Shown here in pieces: positions 30,497 to 51,187 of a DNA stretch of 64,000 nucleotides. Each line of letters starts with the position of its first letter. Position 1 is the stretch's first letter. A program made the translations under genes and the position numbers. The notes beneath the pieces were generated by a model. The model ran no database searches and was not told the DNA's origin. It saw only the letters and a program-made list of their open reading frames with translations. The DNA is taken from contig CAVUCE010000015.1 in NCBI GenBank assembly GCA_963739985.1, positions 6,990-70,989 on the forward strand, read 5' to 3'. The DNA comes from an uncultured Ignavibacteriales bacterium (GTDB lineage: Bacteria; Bacteroidota; Ignavibacteria; Ignavibacteriales; Ignavibacteriaceae).

Positions 30497-31444
30497 TTAA
30501 TCTAAAATATCGCCTTCGCGCACTCCTAACGTTTTTGCGATTTCATTTATTTCAATACCTTCCATTTCTTCAGTCATAACATCTTCAATATTTAAGATTG
30601 CATCCGCACAAGCAATTTGAAATGTTTCATCATCAATTTTCATGATCTTACCGACTGTAGAATGATCATCATTTGGACCAACATAAGAGACCATGTTAAC
30701 AACTACTTCACCATTCCCGGTTTTCAGTTTAGGGTAAACAAAAGTATTTTCAAATGGAATAAAATTTAATCCTCTTACCATTTGATCAATTTTTTCATAA
30801 TTCCATGAAAAAGAGAGAATACCATTATTTTCCGGATAATCTTTTAATGAGTAGTAAGAAGACATTCCGGATTGAGGTTGTCTTTTATAATTATCATGTA
30901 ATATATTTTCGAATGTTTCTTTAAATAAAGCTAAGCCCTCCATTATTGAAAGACTCATTAACCTTCCGGCCGTTGTATCTTCATCAATAGGAAATTTTCT
31001 TTGAGCTATTACATCGCCTGTATCAATTCCTAAGTCAATAAAGTGCCATGTAACACCATGCTCTTTTTCACCATTAATAATTACCCACGACGGGATATTG
31101 ACGCCGCCGTACAGAGGCAGCGGAGCATTATGAAAATTTATAGTGCCGGTTTTAGGAATTGCAATAAGATCATCTTTAATAATTCTATAATTATTTATGC
31201 TGAACATTATATCGGGTTTATGCCTTTTTACAAACTCAACTGCTTCCGGTGAATTTATCTTTGTTATACCTTTTACGTTAATTCCCGCGTCTTCAAATGT
31301 CTTCATTATCGAATCAGAAGGATTATCTTTCTTCGGATCATATATAAAAAAAGCGATTTTTGCGTCTTCATATTTCTGCATATACTTGATGCAATCGACG
31401 GCCATTTTACCGTTGCCTATTACACCAAAAATTTTTTCTGCCAT
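30497..31444 (-). CDS. formyltransferase-like protein (Fmt/ArnA-N-like fold)
   Basis: 315 aa. INFHNAPLPLYGG matches the NxH...(S)LLPxxRG catalytic loop and IDTGDVI matches the catalytic Asp region. There is a C-terminal extra domain, as in Fmt. It starts 10 nt after the adenylating-enzyme gene. Confidence 0.7.
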   Translation of the reverse strand: MAEKIFGVIGNGKMAVDCIKYMQKYEDAKIAFFIYDPKKDNPSDSIMKTFEDAGINVKGITKINSPEAVEFVKRHKPDIMFSINNYRIIKDDLIAIPKTGTINFHNAPLPLYGGVNIPSWVIINGEKEHGVTWHFIDLGIDTGDVIAQRKFPIDEDTTAGRLMSLSIMEGLALFKETFENILHDNYKRQPQSGMSSYYSLKDYPENNGILSFSWNYEKIDQMVRGLNFIPFENTFVYPKLKTGNGEVVVNMVSYVGPNDDHSTVGKIMKIDDETFQIACADAILNIEDVMTEEMEGIEINEIAKTLGVREGDILD

Positions 31445-31453
31445 TTTTTGCCT

Positions 31454-32956
31454 TTAGTTATTTATTTGATTTGCCAAAGCTTTTCGATCAACTTTTCCGT
31501 TAACATTAAGTGGAAAAGTTGAAACAGAAAGAATCTTAGACGGAATCATATAATTAGGAAGTTTTGTCTTCAAGTAGCTCTCAATGTCATTCGATTTTCC
31601 ATCGAAATTTTCAACAAAAAGATAAATCTGATTATTACCGATTTTATTTTTATGAGCAACTGCAGCTACATTACTCAGTTGAGTGAACTCTCGAGTGTGA
31701 TGTTCGATTTCACTTAATTCCACTCTAAATCCTTGAATTTTAACTTGGTGATCAACTCTTCCACAATACATAAAATCATTATCCTCATCCAGGTAAGCAA
31801 GGTCTCCGGTTCTATATAATGTTGTCTCTTTCCCGTTCACTTCTTTTACAAAGAATGCTTGTTTATTCTTTTCAGGATTTTTCCAATAACCGGGAGTAAG
31901 CTGTGCACCGTAAAGACAAAGTTCGCCTCTATCACCTTTCGGTAAAATATCGCCGTTTTCGTTTACTACAACGGCTCCCATATTTTCCATCGGTTTCCCT
32001 ATTGCAACTATGCTGTTGAAATTTTTATTCTTCGCTTTGTCTCTGCTCAAATCATATGTTAAGCAAAATATGGTTGCTTCCGTAGGACCGTAAACATTTT
32101 GAACAAGAGCATTCGGTACGCATTCCATCCATTCATGAACTATATCTTCGTATAACGCTTCACCGCAGAACATAGAATAGCGCATTCTAGGCAACTTAAT
32201 CTCTTCAAAATAGGGGCGTAAATAAGCCATAATAGAAGGAACCATAAGCGCTATAGTCAATTCTTGTTCTTCTAATAAACTATAAACATAAGTATATTTT
32301 ATCCCTCCGGGAGGAACTGTATAAACGCAAGCGCCTTTGCATAAAGGAGCAATGTAGGACATTAATGATAAATCAAATGTCATGTCAAACATTTGCAAGC
32401 ATCTATCATTTTCATTTATTTCATAACCAAGTTTATAGAAAGCATCAATAAAAGAAATTAAATTTTTTCTAGTAAGTGGAACTCCTTTAGGAACACCGGT
32501 ACTGCCTGATGTAAAAAGTATATAAGCAATTTCATTTTCATCTATTTTCGGATCGTTCAGATTTATTTCAGCTTTTTGTAATGATGTTGTATCAATAAAT
32601 CTTACTTGATTTTTATCAACAGCTTCTTTAATCTCTTTTGAATCTTTGCTGTCTAAAATCATATTGATTCCGGATTGCTCAATAACAGCTAAATTTCTAT
32701 CAATCGGATTTTCAGGATTAATTGGTACGAATCCAAGTCCAGCGTATAGTATTCCAAATACAGTAGAATATGTTTCAATATCATCATTTGTAATAAAGCC
32801 TATTAATTTTTGTTCTTCTTCATTATTCTTTTCTAAATAATCTCTAATATTGGAAACTATTTGAGCTAATTCTGTATAACTATAATATTTTCCATCAATA
32901 AAAAAAGCATTTTTCTCTGGGAATTTCTGGACTGAATCCTGAATTTGATCGAGCAT
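31454..32956 (-). CDS. stand-alone amino-acid-adenylating enzyme (DltA / NRPS A-domain-like)
   Basis: Adenylation core motifs are present: ILFTSGSTGVPKGV, FDLSL (with Asp), YGPTE, YRTGDLA, GRVDHQVKIQGFRVELSEIE and NGKVDRKAL. Confidence 0.85.
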   Translation of the reverse strand: MLDQIQDSVQKFPEKNAFFIDGKYYSYTELAQIVSNIRDYLEKNNEEEQKLIGFITNDDIETYSTVFGILYAGLGFVPINPENPIDRNLAVIEQSGINMILDSKDSKEIKEAVDKNQVRFIDTTSLQKAEINLNDPKIDENEIAYILFTSGSTGVPKGVPLTRKNLISFIDAFYKLGYEINENDRCLQMFDMTFDLSLMSYIAPLCKGACVYTVPPGGIKYTYVYSLLEEQELTIALMVPSIMAYLRPYFEEIKLPRMRYSMFCGEALYEDIVHEWMECVPNALVQNVYGPTEATIFCLTYDLSRDKAKNKNFNSIVAIGKPMENMGAVVVNENGDILPKGDRGELCLYGAQLTPGYWKNPEKNKQAFFVKEVNGKETTLYRTGDLAYLDEDNDFMYCGRVDHQVKIQGFRVELSEIEHHTREFTQLSNVAAVAHKNKIGNNQIYLFVENFDGKSNDIESYLKTKLPNYMIPSKILSVSTFPLNVNGKVDRKALANQINN

Positions 32957-35696: not shown

Positions 35697-36338
35697 TTGA
35701 AGGTTAAGGATATGGCGAAAAATTTTGTATCTAATGATGATGTTACAGTAAGAATGTTTAAAAGTCCTTATATGGAAGCCCTATCAAAAGTACATCCTTC
35801 GGTTCCGGTAATTATATATGTACCGGTAATTAGTTATTTTATTTACAGAGCTATTGCGATTTTTGATCTTACTTTTTCTAATATTTTATTATTTATTCTG
35901 ATTGGTATAGTTGTTTGGACTTTTACCGAATATACTCTTCATCGTTTTATATTTCATTACAAGCCAAAATCGAATTTTGGCCGGAAGATACATTTTATCT
36001 TTCACGGAGTTCACCACGATTATCCAAATGACTCAAGAAGATTGGTGATGCCGCCGTCGGTTAGTATTCCACTAGCGACGCTGTTTTATTTCTTATTTTT
36101 AGAAATTATTGGCGTTAGATTCGTAGCACCTTTTTTTGTCGGATTTTTAACCGGATATCTGTTTTATGATCTGACACATTACGCTGTACATCATTTCCAA
36201 ATTCATAGTAAATTTTGGCTCACTTTGAAGAAACATCATATGAGACATCACTATCAAGATGAAAGTAAGGGGTTTGGAGTTAGCTCGCCGATCTGGGATG
36301 ATATAATTGGTACTAATTTTTCTAAAACCAATAAGTGA
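35697..36338 (+). CDS. fatty acid hydroxylase / sterol desaturase-family membrane di-iron enzyme
   Basis: Histidine boxes HRFIFH, HGVHHDYP and HHMRHHY. The TTG start comes from the track; ATG at 35712 is an alternative. Confidence 0.75.
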   Translation: MKVKDMAKNFVSNDDVTVRMFKSPYMEALSKVHPSVPVIIYVPVISYFIYRAIAIFDLTFSNILLFILIGIVVWTFTEYTLHRFIFHYKPKSNFGRKIHFIFHGVHHDYPNDSRRLVMPPSVSIPLATLFYFLFLEIIGVRFVAPFFVGFLTGYLFYDLTHYAVHHFQIHSKFWLTLKKHHMRHHYQDESKGFGVSSPIWDDIIGTNFSKTNK

Positions 36339-36757
36339 AAATCCAAATGGAAAATTCAGGGGACGGTAAAATAATATCAAATTCAAAGAAGAAGATATTA
36401 GTTATAGAAGATAATATTGAATCACAATTGATCTTTAAAATTTATTTGCGTGAAGATTATGATGTCGAAATAGTAGATACCGGAGAAAAAGGACTTGATA
36501 AGCTACAAAATTGTGACTATGATCTGTTAGTTTTAGATGTTCACTTACCAGGCAAATATGATGGTATGAAAGTTTTAATGGAACTTAAAAAATTAGAAAA
36601 TAAAAACAGTAAAATACCGACGGTTGTAGTTACAGCTTATGCAATTCAAGGATATAAAGAAAATTTTCTGTCTCACGGCGTACATTCATTTTTAACAAAA
36701 CCCATTGATAAGAACACGCTTTTAGCGGAAATACAAAAATCATTAATACTAAACTAG
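36335..36757 (+). CDS. single-domain response regulator (CheY-like receiver)
   Basis: ILVIEDN ... DLLVLDVHLPG ... VVVTA ... FLTKP give the receiver Asp and Lys positions. The GTG start overlaps the upstream stop; ATG at 36347 is an alternative. Confidence 0.85.
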   Translation: MKIQMENSGDGKIISNSKKKILVIEDNIESQLIFKIYLREDYDVEIVDTGEKGLDKLQNCDYDLLVLDVHLPGKYDGMKVLMELKKLENKNSKIPTVVVTAYAIQGYKENFLSHGVHSFLTKPIDKNTLLAEIQKSLILN

Positions 36758-36825: not shown

Positions 36826-38475
36826 ATGCATAAATTGAAATTCTTATTAATAATCTCTCTCGCACTTCTATCATTCAGTTGCTCAGCGCAGATAACACAT
36901 CCTGTATATATTCGTGCTAACCAGGTTGGATATCTACCAAACGATTTTAAAACCGCGGTTGCATTCTCAAAATATCCTGTAGAGGAAAATCAGTTTAATA
37001 TCCTTAATAAAAAAGACGGGGAAGAAGTATATTCCGGAAAATTAGAAATTAGTAATGAAAATTATGGGGACTTCAAATATTGCTATACTCTGAACTTTTC
37101 TAGGCTTAATAAAAATGGTAATTATGAAATAGAAATTGGAAAACAAAAATCTTTTGCCTTTTCAATTGGGAATAAAATATTTGACAATATCGCCGATTCA
37201 TTATTATTGTTCTTCAAAGTTCAGAGATGCGGACCTACTAATCCATTAATGCATAAACCATGTCACTTATCTGATGTTTCAAGATTAGTTGGTGATCCAA
37301 ATTATCATGGTGCCGTTGATGTAACCGGAGGATGGCACGATGCAGGTGACTATATCAAGTTTCTTTCAACTACCGCTTATGCAACATACATGATGATATT
37401 TTCTTACGAATTTGATCCTGTTAAATATGGTTTTGATGATAATCATGATGGTGTCCCTGATCTTTTAGCTGAAGCAAAAATAGGACTTGATTGGTTGTTG
37501 CGATGTAACTATTCCAAATACAAATTGATTACTCAAGTTCAAAATTTGAGAGATCATGATGTGGGTTGGAGAATGCCATCTGCAGATACTTTACGTTATG
37601 ATAGGCCAGGCTACGTTAGTATGGGTAAAAATCAAATCGGAATTTTTACCGCCGTTATGGCTATTGCTTCTAGAGTTTGGGCCGATAAATTTCAAAAGTA
37701 TGATTTCTCGCAGAAATGTCTTCAAGCTGCTGAAAATATTTATTCTATTAGAAATGATGTTCCTAATATCGATAGCACTAAATCCGGATTTTATCAGGAT
37801 AATGCTTTCTGGGGAAAAATGGCATTAGGCGCAGTTGAACTTTATACAACTACTAAAAAACATGAATATTTTATCGATGCTAAAACTTACGCAGATAGCG
37901 CCGGTTCTGATTATTGGTGGAGTTGGGGAAATATAAATTCACTTGCAGATTATAAAATTGCAAAATATGAACCGAGATTCGCCGATTACATTTTAAATAA
38001 TCTTAAAGTTTTTAATGCTAAAAAGGATTCTTCTGTTTTTAGAGAAGGGATGCCTTATGTTTGGGGAACGACAAATTCTTTGCTTGGTATATCATTGCAA
38101 GCGATATTATACAAAACTTTAACCGGTAGTCATAGGTTTGATTCGCTTGAAGTTTATGAAAGAGATTATGTACTAGGAAGAAATCCCTGGGGCTTGTCTT
38201 TTATATATAATATTGGAACTATGTTTCCAAAACATTTGCATAACCAAATTGCTTATTTTCATAATGGATATTTACCCGGTGGTTTATCTGCCGGTGCAGC
38301 ACCTGAAAATATACTTAAGGAGTTTGATATTAAACGATCAAATAATAAGTACACTATGTTTAATACGGATTCCATAAAATATTATGATGATAGAAACGAT
38401 TATATAACAAATGAACCGACGATAACCGGAAATGCTACTGCAATTTTTGTATACGGTTATTTTAGTAATAGATAG
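36826..38475 (+). CDS. secreted glycoside hydrolase family 9 enzyme with an N-terminal Ig-like domain
   Basis: Signal peptide, then the GH9 signature DVTGGWHDAGDYIKF, and C-terminal YYDDRNDYITNEPTI. Confidence 0.85.
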   Translation: MHKLKFLLIISLALLSFSCSAQITHPVYIRANQVGYLPNDFKTAVAFSKYPVEENQFNILNKKDGEEVYSGKLEISNENYGDFKYCYTLNFSRLNKNGNYEIEIGKQKSFAFSIGNKIFDNIADSLLLFFKVQRCGPTNPLMHKPCHLSDVSRLVGDPNYHGAVDVTGGWHDAGDYIKFLSTTAYATYMMIFSYEFDPVKYGFDDNHDGVPDLLAEAKIGLDWLLRCNYSKYKLITQVQNLRDHDVGWRMPSADTLRYDRPGYVSMGKNQIGIFTAVMAIASRVWADKFQKYDFSQKCLQAAENIYSIRNDVPNIDSTKSGFYQDNAFWGKMALGAVELYTTTKKHEYFIDAKTYADSAGSDYWWSWGNINSLADYKIAKYEPRFADYILNNLKVFNAKKDSSVFREGMPYVWGTTNSLLGISLQAILYKTLTGSHRFDSLEVYERDYVLGRNPWGLSFIYNIGTMFPKHLHNQIAYFHNGYLPGGLSAGAAPENILKEFDIKRSNNKYTMFNTDSIKYYDDRNDYITNEPTITGNATAIFVYGYFSNR

Positions 38476-38768: not shown

Positions 38769-39536
38769 TTGTATGGAAAAATGAATGGAGCAACGTTGAA
38801 GAAGATAAAATTATTGAATTCAGGTTTGCCAATGATAGATAAAGCTTGGGGAGGATTTTATCGGGCAGCAACATATTTAATGATCGGACAAAGAAAATCC
38901 GGTCGAACATCTTTAGCATTACAGTTTGCAAAAGAATGTGTTAAACAAAAAGAAGTTTGTCTTTACATAACAAATATTCGTCCTAAAGAATTATTAATTC
39001 ACGCCTCTTCGATAGATTTTGATCTTCAAGAAGCAATGAATAAAAACGAAGTTATCGTTGTAAAAGTTGTTCCACCTACAGGAACTGAAATTTCAACAAA
39101 CCCAGATCAATTTTTAGCAGAATATTTAAAAGATATTATTACAGTTGTAGATGAATATCAGCCAACCAAAATTGTATTTGATGAATTAACTCCTTTTATC
39201 GAGTTTGAAAATCCCGACTACTTACATGATGTTTTTGCCCAGACAATTGAAGAAATTGAAGATATGGGAATCACTAACTTTTTCGTCTTAAGCGATCCGG
39301 CTACCGAACCAGCAGTTGAATTAATTGAATCATTAGTCAGTGCATCAACAGGTGTAATTTATTTGAAGAAAGATGATGAAGGAACCAGTGGAGAGATAAC
39401 TATTACTCCCAATGTTGGTCATCCCGAGGGTAAGTTTAAAGCAAAATACAAAATTGAACCTTATATAGGAATGACATTTGATGAGAACAAAGTTCCGGAA
39501 TCACCGAGCAAAAATACTTCTATTAAAGAGTTATAA
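38769..39536 (+). CDS. KaiC/RecA-like P-loop-fold protein with degenerate Walker A (GQRKSGRT)
   Basis: LPMIDKAWGGFYRAATYLMIGQRKSGRTSLALQF... aligns by eye to the KaiC/RadA pattern G.D...GG...G...L..G..G.GKT...LQF, but has Arg in place of the P-loop Lys. A Walker-B-like KIVFDELTPF is present. It is a paralog of the N-terminal half of 39586-40842. Confidence 0.65.
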   Translation: MYGKMNGATLKKIKLLNSGLPMIDKAWGGFYRAATYLMIGQRKSGRTSLALQFAKECVKQKEVCLYITNIRPKELLIHASSIDFDLQEAMNKNEVIVVKVVPPTGTEISTNPDQFLAEYLKDIITVVDEYQPTKIVFDELTPFIEFENPDYLHDVFAQTIEEIEDMGITNFFVLSDPATEPAVELIESLVSASTGVIYLKKDDEGTSGEITITPNVGHPEGKFKAKYKIEPYIGMTFDENKVPESPSKNTSIKEL

Positions 39537-39585: not shown

Positions 39586-40842
39586 ATGCGACAAAAGATA
39601 CAAATCAGCCGTTCTGGAATAATGCTAGTAGATAAAGCATGGGGAGGATTTTACCGTGGAGGCACCTATTTACTAATCGGTCCTCGAAAATCCGGTAGAA
39701 CTTTACTTAGCCTTCAGTACGCGATGGAAAGCGCACGCCAAAAGGAAGTCTGCTTATACTTTACGAGTATGCGTCCAAAGGACTTGATGATCCAAGCAGC
39801 CTCAATAGACTTTGATCTTCAGCATTATATGAACCAAAACTTGATCATAGTAGTAAGAGTGGCGCCACCATCAGACTTATACGAGGTAGGCAACCCGGAT
39901 GAGTTTTTGGTAGAGTATCTTAACGACATAGTCACAGTAGTAGACCAGTACCAGCCAAATAAAATAGTATTTGACGAGTTAACGCCATTTATCGGTTTCA
40001 GTAACGTAGATCTTTTAGAGGAAGTCTACTCCAGAACAGCCGAAACGATAGAGGATATAGGTATAACAAGTTTATTTACGGTAGGAGATCCGGCCACACC
40101 GGCAGCCAGTCATATAGTAGACGCATTGGCCAATCACTCCACCGGCATCATATACCTAAAGAAGTCGGAAGAAGACGAGTTGACTGAAATGGGCAGAACG
40201 CAAGGCGGGAAGATGATCATAACGCCAAACATCGGCCATACAGAAGGAAAGTTCAGCTCAAATTATTATATAGAGCCGTACCGCGGCATCACTGTAGATT
40301 ACGGAAATGAAGAAAGTAATAGTTACGGAGAATCTTCCGGTAGCGTCACACAGTCCCGCAAGTATAAATCGCTAGCAGAGATAGATTTGCCGAACGAGCA
40401 AGTATCTTTCTCTAACATATATACCATGAACGATTTCAATTTAATCTTAAATAACCAGATAGCCTTGTATAAGAGTACCGGTCAGATATTTACAATAATC
40501 TCATTCCGATTGGATTTTACGGCAGAGAAGTTGGGATTATTGACTATCAGCCAGTTACAGAACGCAGTTCGTTTATCCACGGATAAGAAGGATAAGATCT
40601 GCATAATCAACGATAAGGTTATAGTTTTAGTAACGAAGGATGACCCCAAGGGTATCAACTTCTTTATAGGTAAGATAAAGAGCAATCTTCCGAACAGCGA
40701 ACCGGGTTACTTGAGCCGTGTTCTTCAGTATATTTCTGTTTACGCAGTAAAGGTAGATGATCGAGTTCAGAGTGCAGAAGACATATTGGGTCAGTTATTA
40801 TCGGAAGATATCCCGGAAAAAAACAAATTAGGATTTCACTAG
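39586..40842 (+). CDS. KaiC/RecA-like (degenerate P-loop GPRKSGRT) fused to a degenerate GGDEF-like C-terminal domain, copy 1
   Basis: The N-terminal half resembles 38769-39536. The C-terminal roughly 130 aa (MNDFNLILNNQIALYKSTGQIFTIISFRLDF...RLSTDKKDKICIINDKVIVLV...FIGKIK) follows the GGDEF-domain secondary-structure and hydrophobic pattern, with INDK where GGDEF would sit. Confidence 0.6.
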   Translation: MRQKIQISRSGIMLVDKAWGGFYRGGTYLLIGPRKSGRTLLSLQYAMESARQKEVCLYFTSMRPKDLMIQAASIDFDLQHYMNQNLIIVVRVAPPSDLYEVGNPDEFLVEYLNDIVTVVDQYQPNKIVFDELTPFIGFSNVDLLEEVYSRTAETIEDIGITSLFTVGDPATPAASHIVDALANHSTGIIYLKKSEEDELTEMGRTQGGKMIITPNIGHTEGKFSSNYYIEPYRGITVDYGNEESNSYGESSGSVTQSRKYKSLAEIDLPNEQVSFSNIYTMNDFNLILNNQIALYKSTGQIFTIISFRLDFTAEKLGLLTISQLQNAVRLSTDKKDKICIINDKVIVLVTKDDPKGINFFIGKIKSNLPNSEPGYLSRVLQYISVYAVKVDDRVQSAEDILGQLLSEDIPEKNKLGFH

Positions 40843-41651
40843 AAGAAAGCTGCAATGAAACAAGTAATACTATCATCACTGCTACTTATACTAATTCTAG
40901 GGGGAATAGGACAGCGTGTTTACGGCCAGATAAATCCGGAAGCGATGAGAAATGAAGCCGAGCAAGAGATGAAGTTCGGCAGATACGGGGAGTCAATAGA
41001 TTTGTTGAACCGCTATATTTCAGCCCGTCCACAGAAGGCAGATGGTTATAATTTACGGGGAATCTGTTATGAGAAGCGAGAGCAGTTTGAGTTGTCTGTA
41101 TATGATTATCGATCGGCTCGAAAACTTGATCCAAGTAACAAAGAAATCCGGAAGAATTTAGAGAGAGCGACAAGTACTTGGTATAAGTTGCTATATAATA
41201 ATATAGAGGGATATAAGAGGGAAATAGCGATAAACCCAAATAAGGCAGAGAATTATTTAGAGATAGGTAAAGCATATAAGAATTTAGGCAAGTGGGAAGT
41301 AGCCGAGCAATGGTATGATCAGTATTTGGCGAGGGAACATGCATCACCGGATGAGATAATAAGGTATACGGAGATACTGGCGAAGAATAATCATATAGCC
41401 AAGGGTTGGCCGATACTGAAGAAGTATACAGATGAATATCCGGAAGACCAGCGGTTGTGGTCACGTTACGGATATTTTTCAATGTGGTTGGGAAAGAATA
41501 AGATAGCGATAAAGGCATTTGAGAATGCCTTGGCATTGAAGCCATATTTTAAGGAAGCACAAGACGGATTAGATCAAGCCAAGGGTAAGGGATATATTTA
41601 TACTGTTAACGATACTGCTTCAAGATATAATTATGGGATGCCTGTTCCGGC
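39586..41651 (+). repeat. direct repeat copy 1 (2,066 bp)
   Basis: Offset 5,735 nt to copy 2. The encoded 418-aa proteins are identical except R9/H9 (g39611 vs a45346). The intergenic 12 nt and the first 265 codons of the next gene are identical. Antisense ORF translations are also identical, which implies near-100% nucleotide identity. Confidence 0.9.
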
Positions 41652-43758
41652 AAAATACAAACAGTATGCTATTGATAAATATTATTCAATATTAAAAAAG
41701 CGCCCTGATGATAATGAAATTAGATTCAAATTAGTAAAGGAATTAGTAAAAGCGGAAAGATATTCAGAAGCCAATGATGAATTACAAACTTTAATTCAAG
41801 ATACAAGTAAAACTGAATATCAAGACTATTACACTAATTTTAAATCTCTCAGGGATAGTGTCTTTGAGAAGAGAATAACCGACTATGCAGCCAAGTTTAA
41901 AGCAGATCCACATAATAAAGAAGTAGCAATAAAACTTGCTGATGCTTATGGCCATACATATGATTTTGACAGTTCAATGGAAGTATTGTCAGAATATCTT
42001 AAAGGAATTCCTGAAAATAAAGAATTAGATGTAAGATTTTTATATGCTAAATACGCATCATGGAATTACGAATGGAACGAAGCTAGGGTGACTCTTGATA
42101 ACTTATTAAAATATGATCCTAATAATTTAGATTATCAATTACTCAGTGCCCAAATAACTGCCTGGAATGTAACTGAATCTAAACAAGAAGAAATTGATAA
42201 TGCCAGTAGATATATAAAAAATGTTCTTGCAAAAGATCCTAATAATATGCTTGCTTTGATTGCTGAAGTATATCTAAAATCCGGACAGGGTGACATGGTC
42301 TCAGCCAAAAAAGTTGTGGATCAGTTAAAAACTTTATATCCTGAAAAGAAAGAAATAACAGCTATTCAAAATTATTATAATACGCGACTTCTTGTTGCTA
42401 AAGAAAAAGAAATACTTAATATGCGAGGAAAAGCCGGTAAACTATATCTGGCCGGCAATTGTAATGATGCTTTGAAAATTTATGACGATATTTTCGAAAG
42501 GGAAAAAAATCCAAGCAGAGACCTGATTCTTGAATACGCTTCGGTTAGTTCATGTGCAAAAGCGTATACTCAAGCAATAGATTTATACAATCAGGCATTA
42601 AATTTAAGCTATGATAGTGAAACTGCTAGTTTACTTGCTCTAAATTATTTATGGTCCGGTGATACAACTAAATGCTTAATTATGTTACAAGATTTGCAAG
42701 AAAAAAATCCATCAGATTTTCGTACTAATTATTATTTAGGTGATATTTACGAACGAACTAAACAACCTGAAAAAGCTATAGCAATATATGATAGACTCTT
42801 GTCTGATTCTTTAAGAAGCAATTTAGATTCAACACAAATTGCAACATTAGAAACTAGATTAGGTTATCTTAACACCGGATTCGGAGGAGGCTTTGGAAGG
42901 TTTCCTGCATACGTTGCACTTTCACCGATGGCATCTTATTATGCAGATAACCAAGATTTTAGATTATCAGATATTGGTGGGCGGTTAGAGGTAGGAATTA
43001 CCAGTTTCTTAACAATAGGTGCTTCATATTCCCGAACCGGATTAACTAATAAATATTATACAAGATATTTAAGCTCTAACAAGTGGCTTGCATATTTAAG
43101 ATTGGTTAAAGGATTAACAGCTTCAGTCGGCTTCGGAACAATTCATACCGTTGGCTATTCTCCAAAAAACATCGCTGATGCTTCATTGAAGTACCAGGGT
43201 GTTGAAGATAGATTGACTACTTCATTATCTTATGAAACAACAGACGGAAGACTAGCTTTATATTCACCTTATATATTAGATAAAGATTACAGAGTAAACA
43301 TTGTTAGATTTAATATTGATTATTTATTCAGATCAGGTTTTAAGGTATTAGCTAATTATCAACACCTTTCAATAAGCGATAATAATAGCGGAGATAATCT
43401 CCAATTCAGATTAGGTAAATCGCTATACAAAGATTTGTTTATCGGATATGAATATTTGTATTCCAATTTTTCGTTCATGTCTTCATACTATTACTCCCCG
43501 GCAAGTTTTAGTGCACATAGCATTTGGTTTGATTGGAGGCCGTTAAACGAAGACAATATAAAATTAGATTTTGGCGGAAAGTTCGGTTATGTTCCGCAGA
43601 GCGATTACTTGCTTAGAGAAGGATTTGGGCAAATAACCTATAAACCACTTCCTATATTAAATATTGTAGCGAGAATTTCAGCAGCAAGTTCTTATCGATA
43701 TGATGGAAGTTATAACTATTTATCTGGTTTAATTTCGGCATATATCAGCTTGTTTTAA
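40855..43758 (+). CDS. outer-membrane polysaccharide export protein A: TPR region plus C-terminal beta-barrel (PgaA/BcsC/PelB-like)
   Basis: Signal peptide, about 600 aa of TPR-like repeats (ADGYNLRGICYEKREQFELSVYDYRSARKLDPSN...). The C-terminal roughly 300 aa shows an alternating hydrophobic beta-strand pattern ending ...SAYISLF, an OMP-type terminal Phe. Confidence 0.65.
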   Translation: MKQVILSSLLLILILGGIGQRVYGQINPEAMRNEAEQEMKFGRYGESIDLLNRYISARPQKADGYNLRGICYEKREQFELSVYDYRSARKLDPSNKEIRKNLERATSTWYKLLYNNIEGYKREIAINPNKAENYLEIGKAYKNLGKWEVAEQWYDQYLAREHASPDEIIRYTEILAKNNHIAKGWPILKKYTDEYPEDQRLWSRYGYFSMWLGKNKIAIKAFENALALKPYFKEAQDGLDQAKGKGYIYTVNDTASRYNYGMPVPAKYKQYAIDKYYSILKKRPDDNEIRFKLVKELVKAERYSEANDELQTLIQDTSKTEYQDYYTNFKSLRDSVFEKRITDYAAKFKADPHNKEVAIKLADAYGHTYDFDSSMEVLSEYLKGIPENKELDVRFLYAKYASWNYEWNEARVTLDNLLKYDPNNLDYQLLSAQITAWNVTESKQEEIDNASRYIKNVLAKDPNNMLALIAEVYLKSGQGDMVSAKKVVDQLKTLYPEKKEITAIQNYYNTRLLVAKEKEILNMRGKAGKLYLAGNCNDALKIYDDIFEREKNPSRDLILEYASVSSCAKAYTQAIDLYNQALNLSYDSETASLLALNYLWSGDTTKCLIMLQDLQEKNPSDFRTNYYLGDIYERTKQPEKAIAIYDRLLSDSLRSNLDSTQIATLETRLGYLNTGFGGGFGRFPAYVALSPMASYYADNQDFRLSDIGGRLEVGITSFLTIGASYSRTGLTNKYYTRYLSSNKWLAYLRLVKGLTASVGFGTIHTVGYSPKNIADASLKYQGVEDRLTTSLSYETTDGRLALYSPYILDKDYRVNIVRFNIDYLFRSGFKVLANYQHLSISDNNSGDNLQFRLGKSLYKDLFIGYEYLYSNFSFMSSYYYSPASFSAHSIWFDWRPLNEDNIKLDFGGKFGYVPQSDYLLREGFGQITYKPLPILNIVARISAASSYRYDGSYNYLSGLISAYISLF

Positions 43759-45124: not shown

Positions 45125-45151
45125 TTTAACCCAAAGTATTATTTTAGCTTA

Positions 45152-45181
45152 AGTGTCTCTGAATAGAGGCACTTTTTTTTG
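45152..45181 (+). terminator. rho-independent terminator after the SGNH paralog
   Basis: agtgtctct / gaat / agaggcact gives a 9-bp stem with one G-U pair, followed by eight T. Confidence 0.75.
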
Positions 45182-45320: not shown

Positions 45321-46577
45321 ATGCGACAAAAGATACAAATCAGCCATTCTGGAATAATGCTAGTAGATAAAGCATGGGGAGGATTTTACCGTGGAGGCAC
45401 CTATTTACTAATCGGTCCTCGAAAATCCGGTAGAACTTTACTTAGCCTTCAGTACGCGATGGAAAGCGCACGCCAAAAGGAAGTCTGCTTATACTTTACG
45501 AGTATGCGTCCAAAGGACTTGATGATCCAAGCAGCCTCAATAGACTTTGATCTTCAGCATTATATGAACCAAAACTTGATCATAGTAGTAAGAGTGGCGC
45601 CACCATCAGACTTATACGAGGTAGGCAACCCGGATGAGTTTTTGGTAGAGTATCTTAACGACATAGTCACAGTAGTAGACCAGTACCAGCCAAATAAAAT
45701 AGTATTTGACGAGTTAACGCCATTTATCGGTTTCAGTAACGTAGATCTTTTAGAGGAAGTCTACTCCAGAACAGCCGAAACGATAGAGGATATAGGTATA
45801 ACAAGTTTATTTACGGTAGGAGATCCGGCCACACCGGCAGCCAGTCATATAGTAGACGCATTGGCCAATCACTCCACCGGCATCATATACCTAAAGAAGT
45901 CGGAAGAAGACGAGTTGACTGAAATGGGCAGAACGCAAGGCGGGAAGATGATCATAACGCCAAACATCGGCCATACAGAAGGAAAGTTCAGCTCAAATTA
46001 TTATATAGAGCCGTACCGCGGCATCACTGTAGATTACGGAAATGAAGAAAGTAATAGTTACGGAGAATCTTCCGGTAGCGTCACACAGTCCCGCAAGTAT
46101 AAATCGCTAGCAGAGATAGATTTGCCGAACGAGCAAGTATCTTTCTCTAACATATATACCATGAACGATTTCAATTTAATCTTAAATAACCAGATAGCCT
46201 TGTATAAGAGTACCGGTCAGATATTTACAATAATCTCATTCCGATTGGATTTTACGGCAGAGAAGTTGGGATTATTGACTATCAGCCAGTTACAGAACGC
46301 AGTTCGTTTATCCACGGATAAGAAGGATAAGATCTGCATAATCAACGATAAGGTTATAGTTTTAGTAACGAAGGATGACCCCAAGGGTATCAACTTCTTT
46401 ATAGGTAAGATAAAGAGCAATCTTCCGAACAGCGAACCGGGTTACTTGAGCCGTGTTCTTCAGTATATTTCTGTTTACGCAGTAAAGGTAGATGATCGAG
46501 TTCAGAGTGCAGAAGACATATTGGGTCAGTTATTATCGGAAGATATCCCGGAAAAAAACAAATTAGGATTTCACTAG
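45321..46577 (+). CDS. KaiC/RecA-like plus degenerate GGDEF-like protein, copy 2
   Basis: 418 aa, identical to 39586-40842 except H9 for R9. Confidence 0.6.
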   Translation: MRQKIQISHSGIMLVDKAWGGFYRGGTYLLIGPRKSGRTLLSLQYAMESARQKEVCLYFTSMRPKDLMIQAASIDFDLQHYMNQNLIIVVRVAPPSDLYEVGNPDEFLVEYLNDIVTVVDQYQPNKIVFDELTPFIGFSNVDLLEEVYSRTAETIEDIGITSLFTVGDPATPAASHIVDALANHSTGIIYLKKSEEDELTEMGRTQGGKMIITPNIGHTEGKFSSNYYIEPYRGITVDYGNEESNSYGESSGSVTQSRKYKSLAEIDLPNEQVSFSNIYTMNDFNLILNNQIALYKSTGQIFTIISFRLDFTAEKLGLLTISQLQNAVRLSTDKKDKICIINDKVIVLVTKDDPKGINFFIGKIKSNLPNSEPGYLSRVLQYISVYAVKVDDRVQSAEDILGQLLSEDIPEKNKLGFH

Positions 46578-47386
46578 AAGAAAGCTGCAATGAAACAAGT
46601 AATACTATCATCACTGCTACTTATACTAATTCTAGGGGGAATAGGACAGCGTGTTTACGGCCAGATAAATCCGGAAGCGATGAGAAATGAAGCCGAGCAA
46701 GAGATGAAGTTCGGCAGATACGGGGAGTCAATAGATTTGTTGAACCGCTATATTTCAGCCCGTCCACAGAAGGCAGATGGTTATAATTTACGGGGAATCT
46801 GTTATGAGAAGCGAGAGCAGTTTGAGTTGTCTGTATATGATTATCGATCGGCTCGAAAACTTGATCCAAGTAACAAAGAAATCCGGAAGAATTTAGAGAG
46901 AGCGACAAGTACTTGGTATAAGTTGCTATATAATAATATAGAGGGATATAAGAGGGAAATAGCGATAAACCCAAATAAGGCAGAGAATTATTTAGAGATA
47001 GGTAAAGCATATAAGAATTTAGGCAAGTGGGAAGTAGCCGAGCAATGGTATGATCAGTATTTGGCGAGGGAACATGCATCACCGGATGAGATAATAAGGT
47101 ATACGGAGATACTGGCGAAGAATAATCATATAGCCAAGGGTTGGCCGATACTGAAGAAGTATACAGATGAATATCCGGAAGACCAGCGGTTGTGGTCACG
47201 TTACGGATATTTTTCAATGTGGTTGGGAAAGAATAAGATAGCGATAAAGGCATTTGAGAATGCCTTGGCATTGAAGCCATATTTTAAGGAAGCACAAGAC
47301 GGATTAGATCAAGCCAAGGGTAAGGGATATATTTATACTGTTAACGATACTGCTTCAAGATATAATTATGGGATGCCTGTTCCGGC
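45321..47386 (+). repeat. direct repeat copy 2 (2,066 bp)
   Basis: See copy 1. Identity begins at the ATG and ends after ...cctgttccggc. The two sequences then diverge (caaaataca vs tcctgctta) but both stay in frame. Confidence 0.9.
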
Positions 47387-49463
47387 TCCTGCTTATTCAT
47401 ATCCTATTGATAAGTTTTATCATAAGTTAAAATCTAATCCGGATGATACCGATACACGATTAAAGCTAGTTAAAGCTTTATATAAAGCGAATAGATTAGA
47501 AGAGGCATATCAACAAGTACAAATTTTATCTAAAACTCCGGTCGATTCAACACTGGCATTTCAGGAATTAAAAGATCAGATATTATCATACCGCGAGAAA
47601 TATTATGCGCAAAAAATTGAAGAATATAAAACCAAGCTAAAAGATAATCCGCATGATAAGAAAGCTGTTCTCATGTTAGGTACATATTATGCCAATCTTA
47701 GGGATTACGATAAAGCGACTGAATTGTATAACGACTATCTAAGTTTTGATCCCGGTGATAAAGAAATTATTTATAGAAGTGCACAAGTTGCTGCCTGGAA
47801 TCATGATTTTTCTACGGCTATTGATAAGATGGATGAACTTTTAAAAATGCAGCCTAATAATTTAAAGTATCAAATGTTTAGAGGACAATTGGCAGTTTGG
47901 ACAAGTCGAGATTTAGATTTAGGTGAAAAATATTTAACAAATGTGGAAAAAAGTGATTCGAGTAATTTAAACCTTTTAGTTTCACTTGGATCATTATACT
48001 TGCAGAAACAAAATTTTGATCTTTCGCAAAGTTACATTAAAAGAGCAAAAGCAATCGATCCTAATGAACCTAATCTTAACAAATTAGAATCTGATTATGT
48101 ATTCCAGCAATTAAGGGCACAGCAAGAAAAATTATTTAAGATTCTTGAAGAAGGCCGCAAATTAGCTATGGACGGTGATTGTGAAGCTGCATTGCCTAAG
48201 TACGAAGAATACATGTCGAAAGCTGAACCTAATCGTTTAATAAGAAAAGAATATGCAGACGCAAATGCTTGCGCACATAATTATGCTAAGGCAATAAGTA
48301 TTTATGATGATCTTTTAGGAAATCAGTATGATTATGACATTGACTTACAAAGAGCTAAAGTTTACTACTATATGGGAGATTCAACAAAGGCTCTTTCAGC
48401 CTTTCAGAAACTTGCGGAAGATAACCCTGGTGAGTATGATGTTAATTTGTATTTAGGTGATTCATATACCAAAATGCATGAGTATTCAAAAGCTCGAAGT
48501 GTATATGATAACATTTTAGAAAACAATGATGATAGCTTACGAACTGCTGTCGTGGAGCAAAGGTTATCGTGGTTGCCTGTTACAGGCTTTGCCGGAATAA
48601 TAGATTCTTTCCCCAGTTATGTGTTACTTACTCCAAGTGCAACTTTTTATGGAGATAATTTAGGATTCAGATATAACACACAAGGATTACGAGCCGATTT
48701 AGGAATAGCTCAATTTTTATCAATTGGAGCTGAAGGTAGCAGAGGAACGTTAGCCTCGGATAATTTGAGAGAAAATTTCACTCAATTTAAGTGGAATATT
48801 GGTTTTAGATTTACTCCGGAAATTACTGCCGGTATCGGATTTGGAACTGAGAATTTTGGATTAGCAAATGATCAAAAGAATATAGCTGATGGATATTTCA
48901 AATACGATGTTCCAAAGCATTATGGGGTAAAAGTTAATTTCTCTATGATGGATGCTTCTCAAATCCTTTATTCTCCATTCCTCGTTGGAGTTAGAATGGA
49001 TGCTAAGGCTGTGAATTTTGGAGGTTATTACAGATTCAAAGCCGGGTTTAATTTCTCCGCAAAGTATACATATATCGATGTTTCCGACGGTAATAAAGGT
49101 GGAAATCTTGAGTTGCGTGTTGGAAAATATTTTATGCCGAATTTTTTGTTTGGGTATGAATTTTATAACTCAAATTTTGATTTCAATTCTTATCTCTACT
49201 TTTCACCGCAAAATTATTCATCGCATAGTTTGTTTGCGGATTGGAATATAATTGGAAACGAAAAATTGCAACTAGATGCCGGAGGTAAGATCGGTTTGAT
49301 CACAAATAGTAGCTATATTTTACGTCAAGGTTTTATCTCAGCAACTTATAAAGTTATTAAAAGCTTATCAGTTCAAGCATATTTAGCAGCTGGAAGTAGC
49401 GTACAAGATCAGTCGGGATATAATTCTTTGGCATTTACACTTGCGGCTTACTGGACTCTTTGA
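46590..49463 (+). CDS. outer-membrane polysaccharide export protein B: TPR region plus C-terminal beta-barrel, paralog of 40855-43758
   Basis: The first 265 aa are identical to protein A. The remaining roughly 690 aa are colinear but only about one-third identical by eye, with the same TPR-then-barrel layout. Confidence 0.65.
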   Translation: MKQVILSSLLLILILGGIGQRVYGQINPEAMRNEAEQEMKFGRYGESIDLLNRYISARPQKADGYNLRGICYEKREQFELSVYDYRSARKLDPSNKEIRKNLERATSTWYKLLYNNIEGYKREIAINPNKAENYLEIGKAYKNLGKWEVAEQWYDQYLAREHASPDEIIRYTEILAKNNHIAKGWPILKKYTDEYPEDQRLWSRYGYFSMWLGKNKIAIKAFENALALKPYFKEAQDGLDQAKGKGYIYTVNDTASRYNYGMPVPAPAYSYPIDKFYHKLKSNPDDTDTRLKLVKALYKANRLEEAYQQVQILSKTPVDSTLAFQELKDQILSYREKYYAQKIEEYKTKLKDNPHDKKAVLMLGTYYANLRDYDKATELYNDYLSFDPGDKEIIYRSAQVAAWNHDFSTAIDKMDELLKMQPNNLKYQMFRGQLAVWTSRDLDLGEKYLTNVEKSDSSNLNLLVSLGSLYLQKQNFDLSQSYIKRAKAIDPNEPNLNKLESDYVFQQLRAQQEKLFKILEEGRKLAMDGDCEAALPKYEEYMSKAEPNRLIRKEYADANACAHNYAKAISIYDDLLGNQYDYDIDLQRAKVYYYMGDSTKALSAFQKLAEDNPGEYDVNLYLGDSYTKMHEYSKARSVYDNILENNDDSLRTAVVEQRLSWLPVTGFAGIIDSFPSYVLLTPSATFYGDNLGFRYNTQGLRADLGIAQFLSIGAEGSRGTLASDNLRENFTQFKWNIGFRFTPEITAGIGFGTENFGLANDQKNIADGYFKYDVPKHYGVKVNFSMMDASQILYSPFLVGVRMDAKAVNFGGYYRFKAGFNFSAKYTYIDVSDGNKGGNLELRVGKYFMPNFLFGYEFYNSNFDFNSYLYFSPQNYSSHSLFADWNIIGNEKLQLDAGGKIGLITNSSYILRQGFISATYKVIKSLSVQAYLAAGSSVQDQSGYNSLAFTLAAYWTL

Positions 49464-49480
49464 TAATTACAAAAATTTAA

Positions 49481-49501
49481 GTACCGGATATTTGCCGGTA
49501 C
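49481..49501 (+). terminator. terminator-like hairpin after porin B
   Basis: gtaccgg / atatttg / ccggtac is a perfect 7-bp stem. The downstream region is only moderately T-rich. Confidence 0.4.
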
Positions 49502-49783: not shown

Positions 49784-51187
49784 ATGGAATTAAATCAAAA
49801 AGTTAAAAAAGCAACAATCATTCTTGATAATATTCAGGATGACCCAAAAGAAGAATTGAGTGAAAAGAAATACCTAAGAAGAATTTTAATAACAGGTGCT
49901 ATTTCATTACTTTTACTTTTAGTCATCATATACACATTGCCTTTAACAGTCCTTTCTATAAAGTCTCTATTAGAGTATGCAACCATTGTTGCACTTGTGA
50001 TCTTTCTCTTTGTATTATTGTTTAGATACTTCGCAATTTTGGTGCTCGCTTATCTTTACATTAACCAATACACGTATAAAAAAGTAGAAGGTTTTTTCCC
50101 GTTTGTATCCATTATTGTACCGGTTTATAATGAAGAAAAGGTTATTCATGATTCTATTGATTCATTGTTACAACTTAACTACTCCAATTACGAAATTATA
50201 ATTGTTAATGATGGCTCAACCGATGGTACAAAGGAAGCTGCTTCAACATTAGTCGGTTATCATAAGGGCAAAAACGACGATAACATAAAAGTTTCACTAA
50301 TCAATAAACCAAACGGCGGTAAATCAAAAGCTCTGAATGCAGGAATCAGATATTCGAAAGCAGAGATAGTTCTTTGCATGGATGGTGACTCCCAGTTATC
50401 TCCGGATTCTTTAAGATTAGCTGTAAGACATTTTACTAATCCGGAAATTGGCGCTGTTGCTGGTAACGTGAAAGTTTTGAATCGTGGTAATTTATTTACA
50501 GATCTTCAGGCACTTGAATATATTGAAGGTTTGAATATGGCAAGAAGTGCTCAAAGTTATATTAGACTAGTAAACATTATTCCGGGACCTATCGGATTAT
50601 TTAGAAAAAAAGCTATTGAAGAGGCAGGATTTTATTCTAGCGACACATTTGCTGAAGACGCTGATTTAACTCTTAAAGTTTTAGCAAACGGCTGGAAAAT
50701 ATATTACGAACCAAATTCAATTTCGTTTACAGAAGCCCCGGCAAAATTACAACAGTTGTTAAAACAAAGATACAGATGGACACGCGGTATTTTGCAGTCA
50801 ATTAGAAAACATAAAAAATTAATGTTGAACCCAACTGTAAACTTTGGCGATACCTTTATTTTATGGACTATGGTTTATGAAGCTTTAATTTGGCCTACAA
50901 TGAATATTGCAGCTAACTTGTTCTTTATAATTGCTGCTTTGGCATTCGGATTTTCATCTTTGATTTTCTTCTGGTGGGCTGGCTTAGCGCTTTTGGATTT
51001 TGTAACAGCATTGTATTGCGTTGCTGTTGAAAAGGAAGAATTTAGATTAGTCGGATATTCAATCATTTATAGAATGTTTTTCATTCTCATCATAGATATT
51101 TGTAAAGCCATGTCAACCATTGAAGAATTTCTTGGTATTAGAATGACATGGGGAAAACTTGAAAGAGTTGGATCGGCAAAAGCATAA
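49784..51187 (+). CDS. processive family-2 glycosyltransferase (PgaC/IcaA/NodC-type polysaccharide synthase)
   Basis: N- and C-terminal TM helices flank a GT-A domain with SIIVPVYNEE, NDGSTDGT, NGGKSKALN, MDGDSQL, EDADLT and the processivity motif QRYRWTRG. Confidence 0.85.
   Translation: MELNQKVKKATIILDNIQDDPKEELSEKKYLRRILITGAISLLLLLVIIYTLPLTVLSIKSLLEYATIVALVIFLFVLLFRYFAILVLAYLYINQYTYKKVEGFFPFVSIIVPVYNEEKVIHDSIDSLLQLNYSNYEIIIVNDGSTDGTKEAASTLVGYHKGKNDDNIKVSLINKPNGGKSKALNAGIRYSKAEIVLCMDGDSQLSPDSLRLAVRHFTNPEIGAVAGNVKVLNRGNLFTDLQALEYIEGLNMARSAQSYIRLVNIIPGPIGLFRKKAIEEAGFYSSDTFAEDADLTLKVLANGWKIYYEPNSISFTEAPAKLQQLLKQRYRWTRGILQSIRKHKKLMLNPTVNFGDTFILWTMVYEALIWPTMNIAANLFFIIAALAFGFSSLIFFWWAGLALLDFVTALYCVAVEKEEFRLVGYSIIYRMFFILIIDICKAMSTIEEFLGIRMTWGKLERVGSAKA

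Follow-up and report, generated by a model that had tools for sequence, protein, structure and literature searches.

A degenerate KaiC-type domain joined to a predicted degenerate GGDEF domain in the leader protein of an exopolysaccharide secretion operon of Ignavibacteria

Introduction

How is an exopolysaccharide (EPS) secretion system controlled when its synthase carries no recognisable receptor domain? This question is raised by a 64,000-nucleotide stretch of DNA from an uncultured Ignavibacteriales bacterium (assembly GCA_963739985.1, contig CAVUCE010000015.1, positions 6,990 to 70,989; hereafter the window), which holds a Pga/Bcs-like operon with just such a synthase. The operon is led by a gene (39586–40842, plus strand, as are all genes and protein features of the operon given below) whose open reading frame (ORF) runs from ATG to TAG and encodes 418 residues. 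Its product, the main subject here, joins a degenerate KaiC-type domain to a domain predicted to have a degenerate GGDEF fold, and is called the KaiC–GGDEF protein throughout. To our knowledge, only a few routes lead from a nucleotide second messenger to synthase-dependent EPS secretion, namely PilZ domains on BcsA and Alg44, the PgaC–PgaD interface and the degenerate GGDEF receptors PelD and BcsE, and all those we know of were worked out in Proteobacteria.

A preliminary description of the gene had likened its product to BcsE, a receptor for cyclic dimeric GMP (c-di-GMP), and had proposed an analogous but independently assembled sensor at the head of each export module. Here we follow up that proposal. 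We suggest, with a probability that we put at roughly 0.55, that the KaiC–GGDEF protein is a cytoplasmic pseudo-enzyme acting as a regulator or scaffold subunit of Pga/Bcs-like synthase-dependent EPS secretion, in a manner analogous to BcsE and PelD. In the literature that we searched we found no description of a KaiC–GGDEF protein of this type or of this operon, and nothing relevant on c-di-GMP or GGDEF proteins in Ignavibacteria. A paper on operon classification (PMC7112194) makes no mention of KaiC, Ignavibacteria, Chlorobi or Bacteroidetes.

Results and Discussion

A soluble protein with a degenerate KaiC-type domain

The KaiC–GGDEF protein has no hydrophobic segment (maximum Kyte-Doolittle value over 19 residues, 1.1) and a pI of 5.1, features from which we predict a soluble, cytoplasmic product. 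A full-length AlphaFold model (predicted local distance difference test, pLDDT, 77) is disordered at residues 241–275 (40306–40410; pLDDT < 50). This stretch varies in length and is unconserved in the family alignment; it links an N-terminal KaiC-type domain of the RecA superfamily (residues 1–240; 39586–40305) to the C-terminal domain with the predicted degenerate GGDEF fold (residues 276–405; 40411–40800).

The identity of the N-terminal domain is supported by three kinds of search. Residues 10–205 match the Pfam family KaiC (PF06745) with an E-value of 1.2e-20 and 74.4 bits against a cut-off of 26.6. Foldseek searches with the full-length model returned the CI and CII domains of KaiC together with archaeal KaiC-like proteins at E-values of about 5e-15, and a family profile searched against the PDB retrieved KaiC chains down to an E-value of 1e-21.

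The preliminary description had called this P-loop domain degenerate, and if anything understated the case. Residue conservation was counted over 133 full-length family members. Walker A reads GPRKSGRT (residues 32–39; 39679–39702), with Arg in place of the P-loop Lys; at this site, position 38, Arg is found in 119/133 members and Lys in the other 14. Moreover, the profile alignment to KaiC places FTSMRPKD (39760–39783) at the “TFEE” catalytic-glutamate site, and no member (0/133) has Glu at positions 61–62. The arginine-finger region K-x-R-G-x-x-H of KaiC is replaced by ITPNIGHTEG (40219–40248): the KxRG motif has gone in all 133 members, in which P214, N215, G217 and H218 are near-invariant. 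The aligned segments, KaiC first, are tfEEsPdD with ft-smrPkd, GtpGtGKT with GarksGrt, and KxRGxxH with TPNIGH. Walker B is retained (IVFDELT, 39964–39984; D130 in 132/133 and E131 in 130/133 members). Judged by the enzymology of KaiC and RecA, the domain probably still binds nucleotide, and efficient hydrolysis is very unlikely.

A related gene accompanies it. A short paralogue of 255 residues (38769–39536) consists of the KaiC-type domain alone, is 57% identical to the N-terminal domain of the KaiC–GGDEF protein and has the same degenerate motifs. Separate KaiC-only paralogues occur in 21/80 related loci (L027, L029, L030, L039, L040, L043–L045, L047–L048, L050, L052–L055, L057–L060 and L063–L064), usually directly upstream of the long form. 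In several of them Walker A is still a canonical GK[ST], which most long forms have lost; the catalytic glutamates are absent from all. This suggests that the short and long forms make up a hetero-oligomeric pair.

Could the N-terminal domain nevertheless be catalytically active, hydrolysing ATP or phosphorylating itself in the manner of KaiC, and thereby power or gate export as a motor or timer, with the C-terminal domain as a passive appendage? Membership of the KaiC family is strong, the Asp-Glu of Walker B is kept, and canonical GK[ST] motifs survive in 14 of the 133 long forms and in several short paralogues. However, the catalytic glutamate pair is missing from every one of the 133 members and from the short paralogues alike, KxRG has become TPN, and the Walker A Lys is Arg in the great majority (119/133). 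The high conservation of the C-terminal domain, described below, speaks against a passive appendage. Moreover, we know of no need for a cytoplasmic motor in the Bcs, Pga, Pel or Alg synthase-dependent systems. We regard an active ATPase as quite improbable.

A predicted GGDEF-type fold in the C-terminal domain

A template-free AlphaFold (AF2) model of residues 256–418 was obtained with a pLDDT of 82 and a predicted TM-score of 0.74. When this model was compared with the PDB by Foldseek, all 50 top matches were GGDEF domains, with E-values from 3.3e-5 to 4e-3. The best was 6d9m (3.3e-5), followed by 3ign, 5llx, WspR, PleD, DosC, DgcZ-type proteins, FimX and LapD, and the fiftieth was PelD (4dmz; E-value 4e-3, TM-score 0.53). 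Over these matches TM-scores ranged from 0.45 to 0.61 and root-mean-square deviations from 4 to 5 Å. The preliminary description had assigned the segment to the GGDEF pattern and had named a lack of structural similarity to GGDEF folds, together with a lack of nucleotide binding, as grounds for giving its reading up; what the structural comparison returned was GGDEF domains throughout. According to the predicted model, the C-terminal domain is a GGDEF-type palm fold.

Sequence comparison says far less. The C-terminal sequence of the query matches no Pfam family at an E-value of up to 10, PF00990 included, and among 26 relatives only one matches Pfam GGDEF, at an E-value of 0.012. A profile search of the PDB gave no real match, only spurious hits to AP-2 beta at E > 0.04. 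An exhaustive phmmer search against 1.8 billion representatives yielded 50 clusters; those inspected carry the KaiC N-terminal domain, save for one FloA fusion, and the remainder comprise a protein of 1389 residues and otherwise mostly short fragments. A profile built from a diverse alignment of the domain found 36 matches, every one a fragment belonging to this family, and PF00990 was present in none of them. A small home-made GGDEF hidden Markov model, run over the ORFs of 1.58 Mb of related loci in all six frames, found nothing. The alignment by hhalign of the C-terminal family with seven GGDEF domains is weak (E-value 0.058) and colinear over 126 columns. Though weak, it sets the β2–β3 hairpin where the AlphaFold models have theirs (residues 337–341 and 344–349, with N342-D343 at the turn).

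These results bear on the possibility that the GGDEF resemblance is spurious, in other words that an unrelated α/β domain is merely predicted to look palm-like. In its favour are the lack of any significant sequence match to PF00990 or to a PDB chain, the hhalign E-value of only 0.058 and the moderate TM-scores and deviations. It would hardly account for a list of 50 top matches that are GGDEF domains without exception, in which no other palm or ferredoxin-like family appears, nor for a colinear alignment that puts the hairpin exactly as in the model, nor for the one family member that reaches Pfam GGDEF. We therefore consider a spurious resemblance very improbable. The short motifs on which the first comparison with GGDEF domains had been built, INDK and RLSTD, are statistically meaningless on their own; it is the match at the level of the fold that lifts the observation above chance.

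One FloA fusion (protein P0142; locus L091, 8001–9254) joins a truncated flotillin-like FloA domain (Pfam E-value 2e-80) to the degenerate GGDEF domain. The gene is followed by a full-length FloA gene, lacks any EPS context and occurs on a single contig, and may be the product of a rearrangement or of chimeric assembly.

A lost active site and a conserved I-site-equivalent loop

The reference alignment of GGDEF domains comprised PleD (its sequence checked against the PDB), one GGDEF domain from Geobacter and five cyclases of E. coli MG1655, and the residue register was taken from the hhalign comparison of these references with the C-terminal family (E-value 0.058). In this register NDKVI (40609–40623) stands at the β2–β3 hairpin in place of GG[DE]EF, with GGEEF aligned to N342-D-K-V-I346. 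The INDK that had been read as the replacement for GGDEF (residues 341–344) thus does lie at the right hairpin, but one residue out of register. Positions 342–344 are variable over the 133 members, position 342 being S, N, D, E or K. Moreover, the metal-binding D327 of PleD aligns with R308, a 7-residue deletion removes the FKxINDxF substrate loop (the region of PleD N335), and D344 of PleD aligns with Leu. Read through this alignment, the domain is predicted to be catalytically dead and incapable of acting as a cyclase.

A different picture emerges at the loop RLSTDKKDKIC (40570–40602), which the hhalign register places at the spatial position of the GGDEF inhibitory site (I-site). The I-site, an RxxD that canonically precedes the GGDEF signature by five residues, is R359-x-x-D362 in PleD and aligns with D333-K-K-D336, such that the motif's Asp is preserved and its Arg is replaced by Asp. 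RLSTD (residues 329–333) had been proposed to sit near the I-site; it does lie just upstream and overlaps the site by one residue, but it is an RxxxD and not an in-register RxxD, with R329 four residues upstream of the in-register Arg position. R329 itself is kept in 127/133 of the close family and is lost in more distant members. With no RxxD in register, recognition of c-di-GMP would have to be non-canonical.

The loop is nonetheless among the best-conserved parts of the domain. Over the 133 members R329 is present in 127, D333 in 119, K335 in 126, D336 in 128, K337 in all 133 and C339 in 129. The same is true of helix α3, where GKIKSNLP (40669–40692) places K363 opposite R390 of the PleD I-site; position 363 is Lys or Arg in 127/133 members, N367 is found in 129/133, and K365 is conserved too. 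Helix α1 (DFxLILNNQIALxKSTGQ) is likewise conserved. Among members only 25–50% identical, [KR][KR][DE]K[ILMV]C persists and K337 is invariant. A conserved loop and helix next to a variable former active-site hairpin point to selection on the I-site-equivalent face, whose chemistry appears to be lysine-rich and not that of Arg and Asp.

An invariant leader of the porin and synthase genes

We scanned one genome per GTDB species and found relatives in 281 species-level genomes; gene context was read in the best 80 of these. Almost all of the 80 are labelled as Ignavibacteria or as “Bacteroidetes” metagenome-assembled genomes (MAGs), and where a source is named it is groundwater, sediment or a reactor metagenome. 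Counting only loci with enough flank, a gene for an export porin lies directly downstream of the KaiC–GGDEF gene in 68/68 loci. A glycosyltransferase of family GT2 accompanies it in 54/62 loci, a polysaccharide-deacetylase-domain protein (CE4) in 53/61 and, further downstream, a hybrid kinase in 49/58. Upstream, a GH9 glycoside hydrolase is present in 46/68 loci and a receiver (REC) in 33/68, with one or the other in 63/68; the REC gene sometimes directly adjoins the KaiC–GGDEF gene. This gene order is kept in a 4.6-Mb Ignavibacteriales chromosome, on other contigs and around a homologue that is 38% identical. The KaiC–GGDEF gene is thus the invariant leader of the porin/synthase set in Ignavibacteria.

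Around the most divergent member, P0169 (L008, 10001–11221; 27% identical), GH9, porin, GT2 and CE4 have all gone, while the same flanking genes, a fatty acid hydroxylase and a PAS kinase/LexA, are retained. In this protein the conserved KKDKIC motif has become PEIKVS. The motif looks as if it had decayed once the EPS genes were gone, as expected if the function depends on the EPS machine. Typical operons are also found in three MAGs labelled Acidobacteriota, Bacillota and Syntrophomonadaceae (L081, L086 and L088), which are probably mis-binned contigs or mislabelled bins and not occurrences outside Ignavibacteria.

The genomic context also bears on how these proteins are named in public records. 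An identical protein is already on record, on a 725-kb contig, and there are 1216 database homologues; those with a named source belong to Ignavibacteriaceae or Ignavibacteriales MAGs. They are called “circadian clock protein KaiC” or “RAD55 family ATPase”, with PF06745 as the sole precomputed Pfam domain. Taken literally, the names would make the protein a RAD55/RadA-type ATPase of DNA repair and recombination, or a circadian KaiC, unrelated to polysaccharide export. However, they derive solely from the generic KaiC/RAD55 domain. A single degenerate domain is present with no CI–CII tandem, scores against the NCBIfam KaiC equivalogs are 28–50 bits where the cut-offs are 408–546, and the synteny with porin and synthase genes is invariant, with no kaiA, kaiB or repair genes in the operon. 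A role in repair or in the clock is barely credible, being effectively refuted already by the genomic context, and the widespread annotation is corrected accordingly.

A repeated module, from gene conversion or an assembly artefact

A second copy of the KaiC–GGDEF gene (45321–46577), identical in 417/418 residues, precedes the gene for a second porin. It belongs to a direct repeat of 2,066 bp (39586–41651 and 45321–47386) in which a single base differs (39611, changing Arg9 to His). The repeat opens precisely with the start codon (ATG) of the KaiC–GGDEF gene and extends 266 codons into the porin gene; past its end the two porins are highly diverged, with an overall identity of 52%. This repeat is either a recent gene conversion or an assembly artefact. 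The proposal of a sensor at the head of each export module holds insofar as the second copy, too, precedes a porin with tetratricopeptide repeats (TPR). However, the two copies are not independent, because they form one near-identical repeat. In one related locus (L039) the second module opens with a short KaiC-only gene instead.

Each porin gene contains an antisense ORF of 219 residues (40886–41545 and 46621–47280, minus strand). The two ORFs are identical only by virtue of their place in the repeat, and their low-complexity translations suggest that they are not genes.

The operon and its surroundings

The genes of the operon lie on one strand in the order REC, GH9, short KaiC, KaiC–GGDEF, porin 1, GDSL-like, second KaiC–GGDEF, porin 2, GT2, small single-pass protein, CE4, fn3 protein and PAS-HisKA-REC kinase. 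The assignments that follow are taken from Pfam, which was run on essentially every ORF of at least 120 residues in the window, and from the translations.

Upstream of the two KaiC genes are a stand-alone REC (36335–36757) with its phospho-acceptor set intact (D-D-T-K) and a GH9 glycoside hydrolase with a CelD_N domain (36826–38475), in an operon position like that of BcsZ. Porin 1, a protein of 967 residues with a signal peptide, TPR and an outer-membrane β-barrel (40855–43758), starts 13 nt past the stop codon of the KaiC–GGDEF gene. Next come a GDSL-like protein of 420 residues (start 43862) and, after the second KaiC–GGDEF copy, TPR and β-barrel porin 2 (957 residues; 46590–49463), whose first 266 residues are identical to those of porin 1 and whose remainder has diverged. 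The preliminary description had put forward the TPR region of the porin as a partner of the KaiC–GGDEF protein. Such contact is topologically unlikely, because the porin has a signal peptide and the KaiC–GGDEF protein is predicted to be cytoplasmic.

The synthase (49784–51187) is a processive GT2 enzyme resembling PgaC/IcaA (TIGR03937, E-value 1e-58, below the cut-off); its nearest relatives in the PDB are hyaluronan and cellulose synthases. Neither Pfam nor NCBIfam revealed a PilZ or any other known receptor domain in it. Downstream of the synthase is a small protein (51223–51732) that has a single transmembrane helix at its N terminus and a tail of low complexity. Its position is conserved in related loci, and it is a possible BcsF/PgaD-like anchor. 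Then follow the CE4 polysaccharide-deacetylase-domain protein (PF01522, 632 residues; 51723–53621) and an fn3 protein of 419 residues (start 53732). The GDSL-like protein and the fn3 protein were examined as candidate paralogues, and this was rejected. The cluster is closed by a PAS-HisKA-REC hybrid sensor kinase (55099–58575). In this protein of 1158 residues Pfam recognised PAS, HisKA, REC and an N-terminal “Diguanyl_cycl_sensor” domain and no HATPase_c at an E-value of up to 1e-4, and the ATP-binding domain may be divergent. With a GT2 synthase, a TPR/β-barrel porin, and CE4 and GH9 enzymes in one cluster, the locus is a synthase-dependent EPS system.

Terminator-like hairpins lie after the GDSL-like gene (45151–45174; 10-bp stem followed by T7) and after porin 2 (49481–49501; 7-bp stem). 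They would divide the cluster into short KaiC, KaiC–GGDEF, porin 1 and GDSL-like; the second KaiC–GGDEF and porin 2; and GT2 onward. Both hairpins were recognised by consensus alone, in a scan that gave 13 matches where 10 were expected, and a scan for consensus promoters gave 75 sites where 82 were expected.

Further upstream lies a set of the polymer O-acylation type (27194–32956), consisting of a GDSL-like gene (27194) and an MBOAT gene (28942) and, on the minus strand, genes for a formyltransferase (30497) and an AMP-binding enzyme (31454). MBOAT, GDSL and AMP-binding genes accompany the operon also in L006, L007 and L009, which suggests that its polysaccharide is acylated. Lastly, two proteins with the type IX secretion sorting domain Por_Secre_tail are encoded at 16876–18756 and 25755–26705, one of them GHL10 glycoside-hydrolase-like and the other with fn3/Ig domains. 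They are consistent with a host from Bacteroidota/Ignavibacteria.

Proposed function and its alternatives

If the KaiC–GGDEF protein is a regulator or scaffold of EPS secretion, as we propose, it may work as follows. The N-terminal domain would bind ATP without turnover and drive oligomerisation, into a ring or head to tail, and hetero-oligomers with the short KaiC-only paralogue would be possible. It would also dock the protein at the inner-membrane synthase, possibly via the small single-pass protein. The degenerate GGDEF domain would be the sensing or adaptor module, its conserved surface (R329-x3-D333-[KR]-K-D-K337-x-C339 together with K363 and K365 on α3) binding a ligand or a partner protein. 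The likeliest ligand would be c-di-GMP or a nucleotide akin to it, bound at an I-site that has been re-wired. Its binding would turn on the synthesis or export of the polymer at the post-translational level, in the manner of PelD and BcsE. Binding of c-di-GMP by the KaiC–GGDEF protein is plausible.

A receptor or scaffold of this type would represent a convergent reuse of the two dead folds of BcsE, a RecA/KaiC-type ATPase and a GGDEF domain, in a family tied to a Pga/Bcs-like operon. It would extend the sequence definition of the I-site, and would provide a handle on the control of the biofilm matrix in a lineage rich in uncultured members. A more specific version can be framed, in which the family adds to PelD and BcsE a third lineage of pseudo-diguanylate-cyclase receptors, one that arose independently and gates synthase-dependent EPS secretion. 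Here the re-wired I-site (R-x3-D-[KR]-K-D-K plus the α3 lysines) would hold c-di-GMP or another nucleotide, and a ring of pseudo-KaiC domains, possibly including the short paralogue, would form a platform under the synthase. We offer this version tentatively and think it on balance doubtful; were it correct, Ignavibacteria would have their first described mechanism for regulating an EPS machine.

Several observations weigh against the proposed regulator or scaffold. Homology to GGDEF domains rests on predicted structure, the sequence tests being negative or marginal. The canonical RxxD is not in register, with D333 at the Arg site, and neither R329 nor D333 is conserved in the most distant members (25–50% identity). 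No diguanylate cyclase, phosphodiesterase or PilZ was found in the 64-kb window or in the sampled loci, and an Rfam search of the window and four loci revealed no c-di-GMP riboswitch, only a single tRNA, although these negatives carry little weight for the genome as a whole. Oligomerisation and membrane docking are suggested by analogy only. Moreover, the flanking REC and hybrid kinase could supply the regulatory input instead.

This last point leads to the main alternative, one without a second messenger, in which the protein is a phosphorelay adaptor and the synthase receives its input from two-component signalling. The degenerate GGDEF domain, the degenerate KaiC domain or both would dock the phosphorylated REC (36335–36757) or the hybrid kinase (55099–58575), amounting to a “split” REC plus GGDEF pair, and the I-site-like loop would be a protein interface. 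In favour of this are the upstream REC, whose acceptor set is intact and which recurs in 33 of 68 loci, sometimes adjacent to the KaiC–GGDEF gene, and the hybrid kinase, conserved on the downstream side in 49 of 58; so are the missing canonical RxxD and the failure to find c-di-GMP components nearby. KaiC proteins classically signal via histidine kinases, as in the pairing of SasA and CikA with KaiC. REC–GGDEF pairing, too, is the norm in PleD, WspR and BcsE (PMC7439463). Against this, REC is missing in about half of the loci with upstream flank, kinase and REC might just as well be directed at transcription or at something else, and the known EPS systems with degenerate GGDEF subunits use c-di-GMP as their ligand. 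A phosphorelay adaptor seems unlikely to us, and a regulator or scaffold of EPS secretion analogous to BcsE and PelD remains the reading that we prefer.

Comparison with known systems

Among canonical cyclases, PleD, WspR, DgcZ and DosC provide the best structural matches to the C-terminal domain, and both the order of secondary-structure elements and the position of the hairpin agree. They differ from it in what makes a cyclase: here there is no GG[DE]EF, the metal-binding Asp is Arg, the substrate loop is deleted, RxxD is not in register and PF00990 is not matched.

The N-terminal domain resembles archaeal proteins with a single KaiC-type RecA domain of about 230 residues, namely ArlH/FlaH, PH0186 and SSO2452 (matches in the PDB and NCBIfam: 2zts, 2w0m, 4yds and ArlH). 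ArlH binds nucleotide, hydrolyses it poorly and forms a ring or scaffold beneath a membrane machine. In contrast to the KaiC–GGDEF family, from which both the catalytic glutamates and the KxRG motif of the arginine finger have gone, these proteins keep the Walker A lysine, and none has a GGDEF-fold domain or is found in an EPS operon.

The operon itself resembles PgaABCD, with which it shares a TPR and β-barrel porin (a weak match to PgaA), a PgaC/IcaA-like GT2 (E-value 1e-58), a CE4 protein and a small membrane protein after the synthase. However, all matches are below the equivalog cut-offs, and the operon here adds GH9, the KaiC–GGDEF protein and O-acylation genes. In the Pga system c-di-GMP binds PgaC–PgaD directly, and we know of no separate cytosolic c-di-GMP receptor there.

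PelD is the degenerate GGDEF receptor of the Pel system (PMC7439463). The likeness lies in a degenerate GGDEF domain that serves, or here would serve, as regulatory subunit in synthase-dependent EPS secretion through a TPR/β-barrel porin. PelD differs in being membrane-anchored, with a GAF domain, a degenerate GGDEF domain and a canonical RxxD I-site, whereas the protein described here is predicted to be soluble and has no transmembrane segment and no GAF, a degenerate KaiC domain as partner and no in-register RxxD.

In architecture there is a parallel with BcsE, as the preliminary description had recognised. The N-terminal domain of BcsE is catalytically incompetent and RecA/KaiC-like, its model having been overlaid on KaiC; it oligomerises and binds the small membrane protein BcsF, by which BcsE is recruited. 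C-terminal to it is a tandem of degenerate REC and GGDEF domains, in which c-di-GMP is bound at an RxGD I-site (PMC7439463, PMC8892547). Both proteins can be seen as cytosolic regulators of synthase-dependent EPS secretion, here encoded by the leader gene, in which a dead RecA/KaiC-like N-terminal domain is combined with a dead GGDEF-fold C-terminal domain, and in both clusters a small single-pass membrane protein is present, which in E. coli is BcsF and anchors BcsE.

The differences from BcsE are nevertheless many. The KaiC–GGDEF protein lacks the degenerate REC, its two domains being joined by the 35-residue disordered linker, and its I-site position reads DKKD in place of RxGD. Neither the query nor its relatives match PF10995, the family profile aligns with E. 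coli BcsE by hhalign at a probability of 0.3% and out of register, no BcsE chain was found in the profile search of the PDB, and BcsE lies outside the top 50 of the Foldseek search with the C-terminal domain. The N-terminal domain is a clear Pfam KaiC member here and recognised by fold only in BcsE. The C-terminal domain keeps helix α1, which is lost in BcsE and PelD (PMC7439463), and it ranks with the canonical cyclases, nearer to them than to PelD. The synthase is PgaC-like without PilZ, none of the families BcsB, BcsG, BcsQ and BcsR was detected in the cluster, and the hosts are Ignavibacteria and Proteobacteria respectively, with phyletic ranges that do not overlap. Membership of the BcsE family is therefore rejected, given the missing REC and PF10995, the hhalign probability and the different synthase and partners. 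The same differences bear out the suggestion of an independently assembled protein: although a very deep common ancestry is possible, independent assembly of the KaiC–GGDEF protein and of BcsE is better supported than shared descent.

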